Shown: positions 57,973-64,000 of the stretch, one piece after another
Position numbering within the stretch: the first letter of the stretch is position 1
How the letters are laid out: each line of letters starts with the position of its first letter
IMG/VR virus record: IMGVR_UViG_3300009155_000038
Origin: a virus
DNA length: 64,000 bases
Reading direction: 5' to 3' (one strand)
Notes under the pieces: model-generated
What the model was told of the DNA's origin: nothing
Seen by the model: only the letters and a program-made list of their open reading frames with translations
Database searches by the model: none
Position numbers and translations under genes: made by a program

Positions 57973-58674
57973 CTAGCAAGTAGCGGGCATGACCGCCACG
58001 GCGTTTACCGTGACAGCAGCCTTCTTCTCAGCCTCGGTCAGCGCCTCGGCGATTTCCTCGCGCGAGATGCCGGCTTGGAAGAGCGTGTACGCCACCGGGG
58101 CAACACAGTTGGCGGTGATGGCCGCAAACAGGATGCCCGTGACCTTCGCCACGGTTCCAGCGCCAACAAGCCCAGTGGCCAGCGACGCCATGCCGGCGCC
58201 GACGACAACACCGGTGGTCACGGCCACACCGAAGGCCGCCGCAGCAGCCAACAGGTTGACGACGTGGCCATTGACGGCGATCCAGTCGACCGTCATGCTG
58301 CCGACGAACTCGTACACGTACTCCAGCGCCTTACGAGTGGCGCCGTACGCATACACGATCTGCTCGCCGATCCAGTGCAGGACCGCCGTGGTGTACTCGA
58401 TCACCGTGCTGTACACCTGACCCAGAAACACCCAGACCTGACCAGCCACGTGGGCCAGCGAGTCGTAGATGTTCTGAAACGTGGTGGTGGTAGCCGAGTA
58501 AACACCGCTGACGACAGCCGCGCTGCCGTTGTAGATCTGCACGAGCGGATTGCTCATGTAGACCGCCTCGTCGACGATCTGCTGAACGTCGGCCTTGGTG
58601 AGGGGCTTGGCACGACGGCGAGCCGAACCAGAAACCTTGCTGACCTTGACGCGCTGGGCAGTTGCAGTAGCCAT
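57973..58674 (-). CDS. Amphipathic/TM early protein in a stand-alone cassette
   Basis: 233 aa, strong C/G third-position bias, long amphipathic helices plus G/A zipper TM region. Confidence 0.75.
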   Translation of the reverse strand: MATATAQRVKVSKVSGSARRRAKPLTKADVQQIVDEAVYMSNPLVQIYNGSAAVVSGVYSATTTTFQNIYDSLAHVAGQVWVFLGQVYSTVIEYTTAVLHWIGEQIVYAYGATRKALEYVYEFVGSMTVDWIAVNGHVVNLLAAAAAFGVAVTTGVVVGAGMASLATGLVGAGTVAKVTGILFAAITANCVAPVAYTLFQAGISREEIAEALTEAEKKAAVTVNAVAVMPATC

Positions 58675-58781
58675 AAAGAAACTCTCTTTCTTTCTGTCAC
58701 AGAAAACGCTGTAGCGGAACCCGTACAGCCGTGCGGGGGCATGAATAACACATTCACGCCAACACCTAGGATCATCACTGT

Positions 58782-58809
58782 ATATACCCGGTTTTTGGCT
58801 TTTATTTAG
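58782..58809 (-). promoter_or_regulatory. 28-bp promoter motif CTAAATA-N11-CCGGGTATAT
   Basis: One of four copies with identical spacing. Confidence 0.7.
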
Positions 58810-58812
58810 ATA

Positions 58813-59889
58813 TCAGCCGTCCCGGGTCTTCAGAACCATCGTTTCACGGGCTGGCCATAGCAGCATTTGCTGCATGGTGTCTTCCGTGGTGATATCTGCG
58901 CCCTTAAGTAAGTTCAGGGCTGCCACCACGTTCTGGGGCGTTTCCGTCCTGACGCGCTTATGCAGAGCGTCGTGGCGGGTGTACGTATCCCAGACATAAT
59001 CCTCGCCGTTCTCGGGATTATGCTTCTTGAGCCTGTTGGTTATGTAATGGTTCGTCTGCACAAGCTTGGCGTTCTTCTTGTGCCCGCTCCGCAGAAATGT
59101 GTCTTCGCCTGTATGCACGACGACACAGTGCTGCATCGCTTCTTTGCCAACGACATGCGCAAAGAACGGAACCATTACGGGCTGGGAACGCAACCCCAGC
59201 ACCGTGTTGTTATAGTCCGTCATTCTGTCGCACACGGCCCGTACTCGTTGAAGCACAGGCCAGCGAAACAGATCAACGGGGTTTAAACAACCCAGCCAAC
59301 TGACCGTCTTAACAGTGGGCGCTTGGTTTACAGTGACTGCCCACTGGGAGCAGATCGCTGAAACCACGCCCACCATGCCAGTAACGCCCACAGAGGTATA
59401 TGAGTTGTTTCCTCTGTGAAACCGGATAAGCCGGGTGTGCTTCCCGGTGGACCGGGGCGTTACCCAGTCCATGTTACGAACCAGTACGGGTGACCCGCTG
59501 ATATCCAAGCTGGCGCTCGAACACCCGCACCCGTACATCTCACTAAGACTCGTTAAGTCGTAGATGAGATTGCCAAGCATGAGGTCGCCTAGGGGCACCT
59601 CTGCATACTTAGCTATACCCTGAATCTCCGCCGTGTACTCTTCGCCGTACATCATGTCTGAGACAGTATGGGCGAACCAGCCGGCGCCAGAGCCAAGTGT
59701 TCTCACAAGGCTCCTGATAGGCGGATACAAGTGCCCTAGCAAATCTTCGTCGACATATTTGTTTATGTCGGCGAGGATGCTGTGGATGTTATCCCCTTCA
59801 GCTTTACAGAACTTTCGCCAGCGTAGTTCTGGCGAGTCGTTCAGGTCGATGTCATACGTAGGCGCGCTGTGCACTTTCAGGCTGTTCAT
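58813..59889 (-). CDS. Acid ceramidase/NAAA-like Ntn-hydrolase
   Basis: YDIDLNDSPELRW (alpha-chain start), GEI.GIA..G..ML.NL.Y, nucleophile CSS..VRNMDW, VQTNH. Confidence 0.8.
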   Translation of the reverse strand: MNSLKVHSAPTYDIDLNDSPELRWRKFCKAEGDNIHSILADINKYVDEDLLGHLYPPIRSLVRTLGSGAGWFAHTVSDMMYGEEYTAEIQGIAKYAEVPLGDLMLGNLIYDLTSLSEMYGCGCSSASLDISGSPVLVRNMDWVTPRSTGKHTRLIRFHRGNNSYTSVGVTGMVGVVSAICSQWAVTVNQAPTVKTVSWLGCLNPVDLFRWPVLQRVRAVCDRMTDYNNTVLGLRSQPVMVPFFAHVVGKEAMQHCVVVHTGEDTFLRSGHKKNAKLVQTNHYITNRLKKHNPENGEDYVWDTYTRHDALHKRVRTETPQNVVAALNLLKGADITTEDTMQQMLLWPARETMVLKTRDG

Positions 59890-60155
59890 TCCTGTACTCC
59901 TTCCAGCCTGTTGAGCCGTTCGTGGATCAAGCTGTTGTTTTGCATTTGCGTTTCAAGAACGCCCAGCAGCCGACTAAGCATCTCGGCTTGCTTGACTGCA
60001 ATAGTTTCAGCGGCTTCAACGCGCTCAAACGCGGCTTTTAACGTATTCGCCAGAAACGCCGTCAACCGCTGCAGCTCGGCAATTTTGCCGTCGATTGTCG
60101 TTGGGCTATCTTCTGGAAACATAGCCGAAACGTCTGGACCGATTTCGTAACTCAT
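59886..60155 (-). CDS. Small coiled-coil early protein
   Basis: GAGG SD before ATG 60155; heptad pattern; stop overlaps the ceramidase start. Confidence 0.65.
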   Translation of the reverse strand: MSYEIGPDVSAMFPEDSPTTIDGKIAELQRLTAFLANTLKAAFERVEAAETIAVKQAEMLSRLLGVLETQMQNNSLIHERLNRLEGVQE

Positions 60156-60220
60156 CTCGAACCTCCGCAAAGAAAAGAGTCCCGGGCATTCCCAATACAC
60201 CACATATTGGGTATCAGGTA

Positions 60221-60248
60221 ATATGCCCGGAACTGGCGGAGTATTTAG
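60221..60248 (-). promoter_or_regulatory. 28-bp promoter motif CTAAATA-N11-CCGGGCATAT
   Basis: Copy with identical spacing. Confidence 0.7.
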
Positions 60249-60262
60249 ATAGCTAAACCAGC

Positions 60263-61444
60263 CTACTGGCCAATGCGACCCAAGTAGACGCCGAACTGCA
60301 TCGCGCTAGAGCACTTGCAGTTCCACTTGCGCAGGGACTTATTTATGCGCGAGTCTGGGTCGTGAGCTGTCGCGCTACCAGTCTCGTGCTTCTTCATGCC
60401 GCACATACGCGAACAGAAAGAATGTCTACGGGCCTTGGCTTTGCCTGTGGGGTGCTTTTCAGTCACGGGCGCTTTGAGATGGCCGCCTGTCGCTTTGTTA
60501 TAGCTAGCCCTGCCCTTGGCATTCAGGCCGCCTTCTTCGTTCTTCCCAGCACTGCGCTGCCATGCGGGAGAACCAGCTGACTTCTCAGGCGAGTTTGTTA
60601 CACCCAAGCCAGCGTTGCCATTGATCACGCCACTAGTGCTCAGCCCGCCAAACGATTGAATGGGATTAAACATCGGGCTGTTACCCTTGGGCGCCATAGG
60701 TTTAATAGGCTTGATGCCGCCCTTGTTCCCAACTGGCGGCGCGCTTGGTGACGTAGCCTGTGGGCCTGCCGGCATGGGCGATACATTGGCTACTTTCTGC
60801 GGCTGGGCGGGAGCTGCCGGAGCCTGTGCTTGGGCCGGCGCTTGTGGCATAACAGCCTGCATTTGCTGGGCCTGAGCCTGTTGCGCACCCATTGGAAGAG
60901 GGGTTGCTGAAGCTGGTTGGGCGTATTGTTGTAAGTTAACATTCTGGGGCACTGGGGCTGCTTGTTGGCCCTGCGCCGCTGCTTCTTCGTCTGCAATCCC
61001 CTGCTGTATCACCTGCGATAACACTACTGCTAACTTACGTAATGTCTCATTTACAGGGGGTTTTTGCTGTTCTTTAGATAACTGACCCAATAACTGCCCC
61101 TCTTGATCTGGACCCTTGAGACTGACGTGTTCATCCCCTGCAGACGTGGGCTTATCGCAGTGGGGAACCTCTACAGGGACGGCAGCAGAGTTCGCATATT
61201 TGGCTGTAAGAGCCGCTACGTAGTTAACAACGGTATTTTTGACGCTTGTATAATTTTTTGTAACACTCGCAGCCACACCAGCCTCCTTAGACTTCTCTGA
61301 GTCTTTAGTTTCAGACGGTTCTTTGGTTTTGTGCGCGTATTCCGGCAGATTCTTCTGATTCGGATACTCGCGCGCCCAGCGTTTGGCGATATCTGGGTGC
61401 TCGGCCCAGAGAAACCTACGCTGCTTTTCTGACCTGAATGGCAT
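60263..61444 (-). CDS. Multi-module virion cargo protein with DUF6321-like domain
   Basis: MPFRSEKQRRFLWA N-module; KEAG, KYAN, KVAN, EKSAG; SPAWQR..GGLNAKGRASYN..RRHSFCSRM..SRINKSLRKWNC; C-term FGVYLG. Confidence 0.7.
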   Translation of the reverse strand: MPFRSEKQRRFLWAEHPDIAKRWAREYPNQKNLPEYAHKTKEPSETKDSEKSKEAGVAASVTKNYTSVKNTVVNYVAALTAKYANSAAVPVEVPHCDKPTSAGDEHVSLKGPDQEGQLLGQLSKEQQKPPVNETLRKLAVVLSQVIQQGIADEEAAAQGQQAAPVPQNVNLQQYAQPASATPLPMGAQQAQAQQMQAVMPQAPAQAQAPAAPAQPQKVANVSPMPAGPQATSPSAPPVGNKGGIKPIKPMAPKGNSPMFNPIQSFGGLSTSGVINGNAGLGVTNSPEKSAGSPAWQRSAGKNEEGGLNAKGRASYNKATGGHLKAPVTEKHPTGKAKARRHSFCSRMCGMKKHETGSATAHDPDSRINKSLRKWNCKCSSAMQFGVYLGRIGQ

Positions 61445-62000
61445 AGCTCTGCATTAGCTCCCAAGCTGATTTAGATATCTTCGCACAAGCTCTGAGAAAA
61501 GCCAAATACAGCTGCGCGCTTGGTTTTTTTTTAGATATCAGAGCCCAAACTGAGAATACCCGGCGCGCACTCTGAAAAGCGGATGAAAAACGGGTTGAAA
61601 AACGGGTTGAGAAACTGAGAAACCATGACTGCCGTCTGGTGGCAGTCACTGTGATTTAAACCACAGTGTTTTTGCGCCGCTGAAGAGCGACTGAAGAGCG
61701 AAATTGAGAATGCCTGATTTTCAGGGCAAGTTGGAACGCTCTCTAGGTAAAAACACCGAGAGGTTGGAACGTTTTTGTTCCAACTCTGACCCAAACTAGT
61801 CAGAGTTCATGAGCCGCGTGACGTAAAGTGTTGTGATTATTGGATTTAGAGCGCGCAACTATTGGTCAGACGCTCTAAGTCCATTATTGACAGGCATTTA
61901 CGGTGATGCGCTGAAGATTGACTGCCGTGGAGTGGCAGTCAGAGGTGCATTTTTAGCGTTTTGTCAGTCACTCTCAACTGGATTAAGATATCTATGTCCC
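61445..62000. other. Noncoding region rich in direct and inverted repeats (origin-like)
   Basis: TGA(A/G)AAAC(GGGT) tandem repeats at 61573-61623; twin TGACTGCC-N7-GGCAGTCA; four further 7-9 bp inverted repeats. Confidence 0.6.
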
Positions 62001-62018
62001 AATCTCACGAGGTGCGCC

Positions 62019-62096
62019 ATGGCCGAGATGGAAAACGACTTCATGTCTGGCGTCTTCGATCACATGTTCGGCGAGATAGATCCCGACGACGAATAG
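62019..62096 (+). CDS. 25-aa acidic peptide, only plus-strand gene candidate
   Basis: GAGGTG SD; MAEMENDFMSGVFDHMFGEIDPDDE; stop abuts the terminator of the convergent gene. Confidence 0.45.
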   Translation: MAEMENDFMSGVFDHMFGEIDPDDE

Positions 62097-62098
62097 CG

Positions 62099-62146
62099 CT
62101 GATAGCTAAAAAAAGCCGAAGCTTTGCTGAGGCCGTCGCCCTCAGC
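62099..62146 (-). terminator. Intrinsic terminator with AGCTATCAG tail
   Basis: GCTGAGG/CCTCAGC and AAAGC-TTCG-GCTTT hairpins followed by a T-run. Confidence 0.75.
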
Positions 62147-62169
62147 TGCCGACGAGTTTTACCGTCGTG

Positions 62170-62481
62170 CTAAACCCCGACGTGCTGCTCCTTGCGGTAC
62201 AGCTCGTCGAGATCTATCACGCTCTGCATAGCGCGCTCATCGCTCACGCCGTCAAGCGTGGCGAAAACGTCATGGCAGGACGCAGTGACGTTGCCGCCCC
62301 GCATCATGTCCGTGACGTCGTCGCGATTGACGACGGCGTCCTTGAAGGTGCGGACGACAGCCACCGCATCAGCGAGAGAAAGCCCGCTGATGACGGAAAT
62401 CGCCGGAACCCAGCTGTAAACATTGATGGTTCCTGACTTCGTCTTGTGGCAGGGGCTGGTATGAATCCAAACGGTGTACAT
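62170..62481 (-). CDS. Small early hypothetical protein
   Basis: GGAG SD before ATG 62481. Confidence 0.7.
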   Translation of the reverse strand: MYTVWIHTSPCHKTKSGTINVYSWVPAISVISGLSLADAVAVVRTFKDAVVNRDDVTDMMRGGNVTASCHDVFATLDGVSDERAMQSVIDLDELYRKEQHVGV

Positions 62482-62511
62482 AAACACTCCTATGTGAAGA
62501 TAAATCGAGAA

Positions 62512-62691
62512 CTACTTTGTGAAACGCTTTGTAGATTGCGCTACCCACTCTAACAACGCCGAGTTGTCGCCGGGCAGCTCTGTAATCACTTTGGCCATGA
62601 CAGCAAGCACTACGATCAGTGCTTGCTTGTTGTCTGCCGTTTTCACCGCGTGCGACAACATTGACGCGATGATGTCTATGGGTTTATCCAT
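62512..62691 (-). CDS. 59-aa hypothetical protein (not in track)
   Basis: ATG overlaps the upstream stop (ATGGATAA); MDKPIDIIASMLSHAVKTADNKQAL... Confidence 0.55.
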   Translation of the reverse strand: MDKPIDIIASMLSHAVKTADNKQALIVVLAVMAKVITELPGDNSALLEWVAQSTKRFTK

Positions 62692-62995
62692 AGACGATCA
62701 GTCCCTTGGGCGTTGTGATAACGCCCGTCAGCCAACCGAACGAATCCCGCTCTCCACAGCTGACCGTGTAGCCAGCCGCAGCCAACTCACGGTGCGCGTC
62801 GAAGTTCGGGTGGCCGTTGGGCTTGATCAACGCCTCGGGCGCGAAGAAGTTCGACACCTCGTTCACGACGTCGTGAAGATCTTCCGCCGGGCCGTCCGTC
62901 AGGTACTCGCCGGGAATGGAGAGCACCGTAGGATCGGCCAGCATCTTCTCGATGGCTTCGACAAGAGCGGCGACGGGAGTAGTAACGTTTTCCAT
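62684..62995 (-). CDS. Small early hypothetical protein
   Basis: AGGA SD; first gene after the promoter at 63050-63077. Confidence 0.75.
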   Translation of the reverse strand: MENVTTPVAALVEAIEKMLADPTVLSIPGEYLTDGPAEDLHDVVNEVSNFFAPEALIKPNGHPNFDAHRELAAAGYTVSCGERDSFGWLTGVITTPKGLIVYG

Positions 62996-63049
62996 AGCGA
63001 GTTCCTTTTGTAAAGAGTGAAGAAAACAGATAGCTACTGCTATTACTGT

Positions 63050-63077
63050 ATATGCCCGCTTTTTGCCTGATATTTAG
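63050..63077 (-). promoter_or_regulatory. 28-bp promoter motif CTAAATA-N11-GCGGGCATAT
   Basis: Copy with identical spacing, directly after a terminator. Confidence 0.7.
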
Positions 63078-63085
63078 ATCGGGCT

Positions 63086-63135
63086 CTGATAGCTAAAAGA
63101 AACGCGCTACCACGGAGTTACCTCCGTGATTGCGT
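63086..63135 (-). terminator. Intrinsic terminator with AGCTATCAG tail
   Basis: ACGC..CACGGAG-GTAA-CTCCGTG..GCGT followed by TTCTTTT; 22 bp identical to 57901-57922. Confidence 0.85.
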
Positions 63136-63898
63136 TCCTTTTGCCTTCACGGCATGCCTGCTTGTGCGCTTGCGGCGCGCGGTAGGTACCCGCCCAACTC
63201 TCCCCGGCCAATGGCCGGTAACCGACACTTCTTCTCTTCCGGCCATTGGCCGGGGGATCATCCGTTTTCATGTTACACGGCTTTCTCCTCGATTGGTGCT
63301 ACACGCCAATCACGCGAACCACAGCGAAGTTGCTGCAGTTAAAAATCAAATTGCCGGGTTATTCGCAATTCCCCGGCGGTTCAATACTCTCCTGCGATAG
63401 AGAGGGCCGGGTTTGAGCCGGACACGAAAGAACCCAAACTGTCAGCACAGGCAACGTCCGCAGGGAAGCGCAGCATTACGGGGGCAAACCCGCAATACGT
63501 CTTCCAACTCCCGGCACGTCTAGTCCTTTAAGCTACATGCCCACTCTGTATTCGGTATGCCTACCAAACACAGGAGCGATTCTGCTGTTGATGTCGCGTT
63601 GCATGCACGACACTTCACAGAAGAATTAATGCTCGGAACATGGCCGGATTGATTACCGGCACCGAACCCTCCTCTAGCATCATGTTTTGAGCTAGCGGTC
63701 CGGGGCGCTTGGAAATGTATTTTGCGCGGCTTCACACGCCACCACGGAGAGCTTGCGGCCCTCAACATTTCCTCCTTCCGCTTTCGACCTCACGTGACAG
63801 GTATTTCACTTGCGTGGTGTCTCACGCAATACCTTCGGGCCAAGGATCGCCCGTCTTTCAGTCACTGAGGACGCTGCCTGTGCGAACAGCTATAGTTC
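63092..63898 (-). ncRNA. Candidate large, highly structured noncoding RNA (about 800 nt)
   Basis: Own promoter and terminator; 15-bp long-range helix 63869-63883 with 63445-63459; 17-bp helix 63202-63255; many nested stems and GNRA/UUCG loops; no convincing ORF. Confidence 0.75.
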
Positions 63899-63906
63899 TA
63901 CACTTA

Positions 63907-63934
63907 ATATACCCGGGTTTTGGCTGTTATTTAG
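63907..63934 (-). promoter_or_regulatory. 28-bp promoter motif CTAAATA-N11-CCGGGTATAT
   Basis: Copy with identical spacing, overlapping the upstream stop codon. Confidence 0.7.
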
Positions 63935-64000
63935 TTAGCCAGCCCGGGCCGAATTCAGCCAGCTCTTCAGGCGTCATAGCCTCCGGGAGAATGATCTTCC
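63927..64000 (-). CDS. 3' end of an upstream gene (partial)
   Basis: ..KIILPEAMTPEELAEFGPGWLTK-stop. Confidence 0.6.
   Translation of the reverse strand, partial: KIILPEAMTPEELAEFGPGWLTK

Follow-up and report, generated by a model that had tools for sequence, protein, structure and literature searches.

An uncatalogued family of intricately folded non-coding RNAs of large freshwater phages, carried as an accessory cassette

A stretch of some 450 nt on the minus strand of a phage contig specifies an RNA that belongs to an uncatalogued family of intricately folded non-coding RNAs of large (~200-kb) freshwater phages. The DNA analysed, called the window below, is the whole 64,000-nt stretch from IMG/VR record IMGVR_UViG_3300009155_000038. 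That its RNA is a member of a real structured RNA family is almost certain, because fold z-scores, homologues, covariation in both a long and a short form, the strand indicated by G-U pairs and the lack of conservation of the longest ORF all point the same way. The earlier note on this DNA had proposed a structured non-coding RNA expressed by the phage, and fold z-score, covariation and metatranscriptome depth bear this out. New here are the anatomy of the long form, the composite nature of the 800-nt unit in which it lies, the depth contrast within a single sequencing run, the comparison with tmRNA and a palindrome-switching loop.

Nearly all genes of the phage contig are on the minus strand. 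The contig encodes a tail sheath protein and a fused beta/beta' RNA polymerase; in the polymerase, the closest isolates are only ~33% identical to it. The interval of interest runs on the minus strand from a promoter-like motif to a hairpin followed by a U-run (Table 1), and the promoter and terminator that the earlier note had assigned to it are both present. Folding of the whole unit gave -364.7 kcal/mol on the minus strand (z = -10.2 against shuffles) and -320.8 kcal/mol on the plus strand (z = -6.6). The core alone has a fold z-score of -7.5.

Table 1. Features of the RNA unit in the window, and tmRNA genes of related loci
Feature	Position	Strand	Basis or remark
Phage promoter-like motif CTAAAT-N17-YATATW, driving the unit	63906-63934	minus	4 copies in the window
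Conserved structured RNA core, long form, closed by helix P1	63440-63889	minus	Homologues and covariation
P1, 5' strand (24 bp, one bulge)	63865-63889	minus	Pairs with 63440-63463
P1, 3' strand	63440-63463	minus	Pairs with 63865-63889
Near-invariant central domain	63640-63785	minus	Covariance model R1
7-nt apical loop with central 4-nt palindrome UGCA, stem varies	63599-63605	minus	Loop comparison
82-aa ORF, spurious	63520-63768	minus	Frame-shifting indels in relatives
Linker with small two-hairpin motif, outside the core family	63351-63405	minus	89% identical to L031:6340-6393
Separate 3' non-coding module (hairpins, 17-bp helix with palindromic arms, terminator)	63086-63340	minus	Match in L087
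Terminator hairpin and U-run	63086-63135	minus	3' end of the 3' module
Next cassette promoter, right after the terminator	63049-63077	minus	Motif copy; terminator-promoter junction recurs in related loci
One-piece tmRNA of relatives	L065:6026-6384, L064:6390-6736, L015:1370-1727, L019:1-297		

Homologues of the long form were obtained in three ways. An exact-word scan of IMG/VR returned locus L011, 96% identical to 63445-63892 and unrelated outside; nhmmer, applied upstream of DUF6321 homologues, returned L019; and a scan of metagenomes with one 18-mer from a 32-nt block, unchanged among the three sequences known at that point, returned L064 and L065. Identity to the window core is 96% for L065, 95% for L011 (96.4% by blastn over 450 nt), 86% for L064 and 60% for L019 over the core alignment, with unrelated flanks. 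Two exact-word scans produced only chance matches or loci already known, and blastn against 50,697 phage records found no match to the RNA. The long form thus counts five distinct sequences, window included. Over its 148 predicted pairs, 94.8% of the cells pair, versus 37-41% when partners are slid. Changes on both sides of a pair, of the compensatory kind, were found in 42 of the 148 pairs, compared to 13.5 +/- 2.8 in shuffles (reached in 0 of 500) and 3-8 with slid partners. Read on the opposite strand, only 87.1% of the cells pair; the G-U pairs therefore fix the orientation of the RNA as minus, as had been surmised from the single sequence.

The core folds into 21 helices over its 450 nt. 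P1, the terminal helix that closes it, shows both-side changes in 10 of its 24 pairs across the five sequences; it is the 15-bp long-range helix, with its extension, that the earlier note had recognised. Within P1, both forms of the RNA follow a common plan: two 5' hairpins come first, then a purine-rich joint that is conserved, then a long-range helix around the near-invariant central domain, and finally a 3' hairpin. In the central domain, two hairpins cap an 8-bp helix; after a junction come a 7-bp helix with a hairpin inside it and one more hairpin. The 8-bp helix (63765-63779 with 63704-63718) is kept by compensatory changes in relatives and exists in four different covarying versions across the subtypes. 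The helices first named for the 5' part (63440-63889) appear in the single-sequence fold and show compensatory changes in relatives, with the exception of the GTGAC/GTCAC pairing: comparative data favour instead the long-range helix 63780-63801 / 63510-63533, which uses some of the same bases. The GCCGGG, GATTGG and 17-bp helices of the 3' part are likewise present in the fold, and the variation available there is uninformative about them.

A shorter relative was first revealed in L015 by R1, a covariance model built from alignment A6 that covers the 148-position central domain only. The window scores 178 bits with R1, members of the short form 25-31 bits (E 1e-4 to 5e-6). A degenerate pattern and nhmmer added L017, L031, L080, L081, L082, L084, L090 and L092, and the distinct short-form versions number eight (L015, L017, L031, L080, L081, L082, L090 and L092). 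The short form measures ~350 nt, the long form ~450 nt. Among the 120 pairs of the former, 99.0% of the cells pair, compared to 32-45% when slid, and 28 pairs have double changes; shuffles yield 17.0 +/- 2.2 (28 reached in 0 of 500) and slid partners 1-8. Its P1 is 25 bp long and differs in sequence from that of the long form. In all three subtypes P1 keeps a length of 24-25 bp despite the differing sequence.

All homologues are on phage contigs, up to ~205 kb long, from lake and other metagenomes. Searches of five whole phage records gave one match each in four of them (76.6-205 kb; the two that are 100% complete are ~205 kb). The fifth, G005, gave no match in the whole-record search, though R1 matches its locus L082 at 30.5 bits. 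Two phage contigs of the same group, L084 (RGVZ01000266.1) and L089 (GCA_040398725.1), are filed inside bacterial genome bins. One phage contig of ~203 kb is in a bin labelled Sphingorhabdus sp., possibly a hint to the host, or simply mis-binning.

The interval had been described as one ornate RNA of about 800 nt. It does form one transcription unit of that size; the conserved part is ~450 nt, not ~800, and the 3' 255 nt travel separately. This 3' module differs from L087:5351-5610 at 3 positions in ~255 nt (~99% identity), in phages that are otherwise 75-85% identical, and L087 carries it without the core. Conversely, positions 63102-63445 of the window have no counterpart in the other long-form loci (L011, L019, L064 and L065). 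What follows the core varies from locus to locus: L011 and L064 continue with an 83-aa ORF and L019 with a membrane ORF; L065 has ~830 nt of unrelated DNA poor in ORFs, and the window has non-coding DNA and the terminator. The linker between core and 3' module contains a two-hairpin motif with a counterpart in the distant relative L031, whose short-form RNA lies elsewhere; the motif is absent from the other core-bearing loci. We conclude that the 800 nt are one transcription unit made of two separately inherited modules, not one conserved RNA. The 3' module (fold z = -6.4) may be an RNA gene or a regulatory element of its own.

Searching public runs for words from the stretch turned up several lake metatranscriptomes that contain it, and four of these were compared over 58000-64000. 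Only the parts of these 6 kb that have cover in the RNA runs serve as evidence here. Contigs of all four cover the core at 100% identity. In X2, one contig (63216-63799) has a depth of 208.9, against 2.0-4.6 for six further pieces of this phage in that run; in X3, X4 and X5 the only true matches are 63523-63869, 63529-63869 and 63581-63867, at depths of 23, 36 and 13. These comparisons are biased, as the runs were selected for containing the RNA, and the four studies possibly belong to one sampling campaign. Uniform carry-over of DNA cannot produce such a depth pattern, and hence the RNA is transcribed and accumulates. Transcription of the interval, the check proposed beforehand, is thereby established. 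The X2 contig bridges the core and the 3' part, and therefore the primary transcript spans both. It also reads through the 3' strand of P1, so part of the molecules, at least, is uncut. In three runs the contigs end at 63869, 63869 and 63867, near the top of P1, a weak hint of possible processed ends. Two runs have contig stops at 63523 and 63529, positions that belong to the 3' strand of the long-range helix, and one of these contigs is joined to adapter sequence; these stops may reflect processed ends or a cleavage site, bearing in mind that contigs cannot show transcript ends.

The promoter motif CTAAAT-N17-YATATW occurs four times in the window, always on the minus strand, where none is expected by chance, and this agrees with the earlier proposal that the RNA is expressed from a phage cassette promoter. 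The copies (58781-58809, 60220-60248, 63049-63077 and 63906-63934) have a rigid spacing, and each one follows a terminator or a stop codon. The motif is present in at least 15 related loci; it immediately precedes the core in L011, L064 and L065, and in L019 it stands ~270 nt before the core. A composite of terminator and promoter is thus repeated around variable units, and the content of the cassettes differs between collinear relatives, as in the PeSL arrangement discussed below. The short form is driven differently: its gene has its own sigma-70-like promoter (near consensus in L015, 5398-5425) and its own terminator, and is placed just upstream of a cassette promoter and an empty hairpin. 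Given these different promoters, the short and long forms may be expressed at different times.

Close relatives of the window phage lack the core. L087 is collinear with the window at 75-85% identity and matches 63878-63934, then 62512-63344, but is without 63344-63878 and hence without the core; in L086, L087, L089 and L093 only a short closed hairpin follows the promoter in place of it. We conclude from this that the RNA forms an accessory cassette. Around it are swappable promoter-terminator cassettes, and the phages' tRNA and tmRNA genes lie a few kb away. A DUF6321 gene, 2 kb downstream of the RNA, serves as syntenic anchor, and the window has what characterises the family: a terminal helix of 24-25 bp, a central domain detected by R1 and a place upstream of the DUF6321 gene. 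An ORF further on, 58813-59889, matches the Pfam NAAA-beta and AAT families (acid-ceramidase-like amidase) and is conserved downstream of the DUF6321 gene in most relatives. The neighbouring 103-aa gene is not such an anchor, because its relatives (L001-L010) have no RNA homologue. Pfam searches of the neighbouring proteins showed no RNA-binding or RNA-processing domain.

The window ends before the tmRNA/tRNA region, which is visible in relatives: tRNA and tmRNA genes lie 2-4 kb upstream of the RNA in L015, L064 and L065, and the tmRNA gene ~6 kb upstream in L019. Three to five tRNA genes are found in relatives a few kb upstream of the RNA, the L065 tmRNA tag ends in ALAA, and L064:10255-10328, which adjoins a tRNA gene, is a borderline match to the Pistol ribozyme (35.2 bits for a gathering score of 34.5). 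Between L065 and L064 identity is 85% in the core and 64% in the tmRNA, which suggests that the core is either under unusually strong constraint or was exchanged recently, since high identity between phages could come from recent transfer as well.

A rival reading is a selfish mobile RNA element, resembling an intron or intervening sequence, that sits in the loop of a leader hairpin, is excised at P1 and has no trans function for the phage. Close relatives do have the promoter, with a short closed hairpin in the place of the window's P1 and core, the core shows 95-96% identity between phages with non-aligning flanks, and the tmRNA of these phages is far less conserved. The tips of the empty hairpins, however, are different and well paired, and are not deletion scars, and the short form is a stand-alone gene, with promoter and terminator, upstream of the empty hairpin rather than inside it. 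Neither group I nor group II intron models matched at E <= 10, no reverse transcriptase, homing nuclease or transposase adjoins the RNA, and its very high steady-state level is unexpected for an excised spacer. We consider a selfish element quite unlikely.

Alternatively, the RNA could act in cis as a 5' leader, stabilising or processing the mRNA or regulating the downstream cassette genes like a riboswitch. In L011 and L064 a ribosome-binding site and the 83-aa ORF directly follow the core with no terminator between, and the membrane ORF that follows it in L019 is small. Yet what lies downstream is not kept: the window and L065 have nothing but non-coding DNA and a terminator after the core, a terminator comes within ~75 nt after the short form, and a fold of 450 nt and 21 helices far exceeds the needs of known stabilisers. 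A cis role is therefore very unlikely in our view, and the RNA is probably a stable trans-acting one, because downstream content differs between loci and the short form has a promoter and a terminator to itself. It is highly improbable that the RNA is a structured pre-primer for a nearby replication origin, in the manner of ColE1 RNA II: a putative origin-like repeat region had been noted at 61445-62000, but a terminator, a promoter and three small genes separate it from the RNA, and the location of the RNA relative to it is not kept in L011, L064 and L065.

The RNA shares its size class, phage origin, lake habitat and nearness to tRNA/tmRNA genes with known large RNAs, and one may ask whether it is a divergent GOLLD or ROOL, or another catalogued large RNA such as RNase P RNA, tmRNA or a group I intron. 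This is scarcely credible. Rfam, searched at gathering score over the window and at E <= 10 over 62900-64000 (4227 models), has no match on the region; GOLLD, ROOL, OLE, HEARO, RNase P, tmRNA and intron models remain silent even at E <= 10. On five related loci Rfam found only tRNA, tmRNA and the one Pistol match. The suggestion that the RNA matches no catalogued family thus holds, and membership in the GOLLD class, also suggested, does not: besides the missing match to its model (RF02032), GOLLD is a single conserved unit of at least ~800 nt with a universally conserved 3' region, whereas the unit conserved here has 450 nt and the 3' 255 nt are separate and absent from the other core-bearing loci. 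The ROOL model (RF03087) does not match either, although the RNA is, like GOLLD and ROOL, phage-encoded (on contigs up to ~205 kb) with tRNA and tmRNA genes nearby. For a group I intron (RF00028) there is no match at E <= 10, and the flanks are non-coding and differ between loci. No model of RNase P RNA, tmRNA, 6S or SRP RNA matches, and relatives have a genuine tmRNA as a gene apart; one purine run looks like the P4 strand of RNase P RNA, but pairs locally in a covarying helix. An anti-Shine-Dalgarno sponge was rejected as the two Shine-Dalgarno-like runs are not kept in the short form, and a retron, omega-RNA or bridge RNA as no partner gene is nearby. In the literature we found no paper describing the RNA family; the Fremin catalogue holds motifs of 29-151 nt only.

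The longest of the ORFs in the interval, all of them short, has 82 aa and next to no chance of being a genuine small protein gene: its start codon is preceded by a Shine-Dalgarno-like run and it is still open in L065 (83 aa), but there indels of +2 then +1 put 24 codons out of frame, in L011 indels of +2 then -1 shift it, in L064 a stop comes after ~51 codons and in L019, where the frame is different, after ~27, the short form has no counterpart of it, and substitutions over it track base-pairing rather than codons. The claim that the interval holds no protein gene is therefore upheld. Conservation of this ORF together with helices devoid of covariation had been named in advance as speaking against an RNA; the reverse was found, an ORF that is not conserved and helices that covary.

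The 7-nt loop of Table 1 tops the hairpin 63574-63634. Its central palindrome is UGCA in long forms (extended to CUGCAG, a 6-nt palindrome, in L064), GGCC in L019 and GUAC in the short form. The counterpart hairpin of the short form is the most variable stem of the molecule, with double changes in 7 of 10 pairs, and the loop centred on GUAC is invariant. A loop palindrome of this kind cannot pair inside the same molecule. The switching has an estimated p of ~0.01 after correction for ~27 loop positions, a value that draws on three independent lineages, takes the short-form hairpin to correspond to the long-form one, and loses significance when the short form is excluded. Such switching is the signature used to support symmetric kissing loops in OLE and GOLLD (PMC12286853). 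By analogy, we tentatively suggest that the core RNA may self-associate through this loop. Processing by RNase III at P1 is something we regard as possible rather than probable, from the length of the helix and the weak hint of the contig stops.

Put together, these elements would give the following scheme. The ~450-nt body is transcribed from a phage-specific promoter as the first part of the ~800-nt non-coding unit. P1, about two helical turns long, would be a double-strand processing stem of the RNase III type or a stability stem, releasing or protecting the body, because its length is constant in all subtypes despite differing sequence. The RNA, stable and abundant, would act in trans; two copies might kiss through the switching 4-nt palindrome into a symmetric dimer or a larger assembly, and this assembly might bind or sequester a host or defence factor early in infection. 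As to this overall reading, a stable trans-acting accessory RNA in a swappable cassette with a P1 stem, a kissing loop and a host or defence target, our judgement is evenly balanced. It is unlikely, in our estimation, that the core goes as far as being an RNA-only symmetric assembly (dimer or larger) or a new ribozyme, used as an early accessory weapon of large freshwater phages, for example by trapping a host RNA-binding or defence protein. If it were, it would add to GOLLD and ROOL a third type of phage RNA that self-assembles, one built from a far smaller protomer.

To our knowledge, few classes of large, intricately folded bacterial or phage RNAs are known. Each one studied gave unexpected biochemistry, such as ribozymes, RNA cages and membrane RNPs. 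The present family is compact (350-450 nt), covaries strongly and is abundant in natural RNA samples; its two size classes define a minimal core, and relatives without the core are natural controls. The family also indicates that accessory cassettes of large phages can carry RNA genes and not small proteins alone, which bears on searches for anti-host and anti-defence functions.

Among known systems, several resemble parts of this one. Phage T4 produces rnaC and rnaD, abundant stable RNAs of ~120-140 nt and unknown function that are encoded with its tRNA genes. The RNA described here is likewise abundant, probably stable, phage-encoded and near tRNA genes; rnaC and rnaD are much smaller and have no similarity to it. 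RNase III stalks, such as the stems of 16S and 23S rRNA and the T7 early sites, resemble P1 as a perfect or near-perfect helix of 24-25 bp flanking a stable body in a longer transcript, but for the window RNA cleavage is hinted at only by the contig stops. The cassette organisation recalls the PeSL (promoter-early stem-loop) cassettes of T4-type phages, in which a composite of terminator and promoter separates small accessory units (PMC2839356, PMC4122927). In both cases the composite is repeated and the units differ between close relatives as if swapped at the repeats; the promoter consensus and the phage group differ, and the cargo is a structured RNA here, small ORFs there. GOLLD and ROOL, finally, are large multi-helix non-coding RNAs with no known function. 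Phages and prophages encode them, in many cases close to tRNA islands, and they occur in metagenomes from lakes and elsewhere; their self-assembly is supported by loops switching between palindromes (PMC12286853). Compared to them, the present family shows no match in sequence or structure, has a long terminal closing helix and a conserved unit of 350-450 nt instead of ~600 to more than 800 nt, and its oligomerisation, for GOLLD and ROOL into RNA-only homo-oligomeric cages, is a suggestion from the loop; it shares with them tRNA/tmRNA genes 2-4 kb away in relatives and one palindrome-switching loop.
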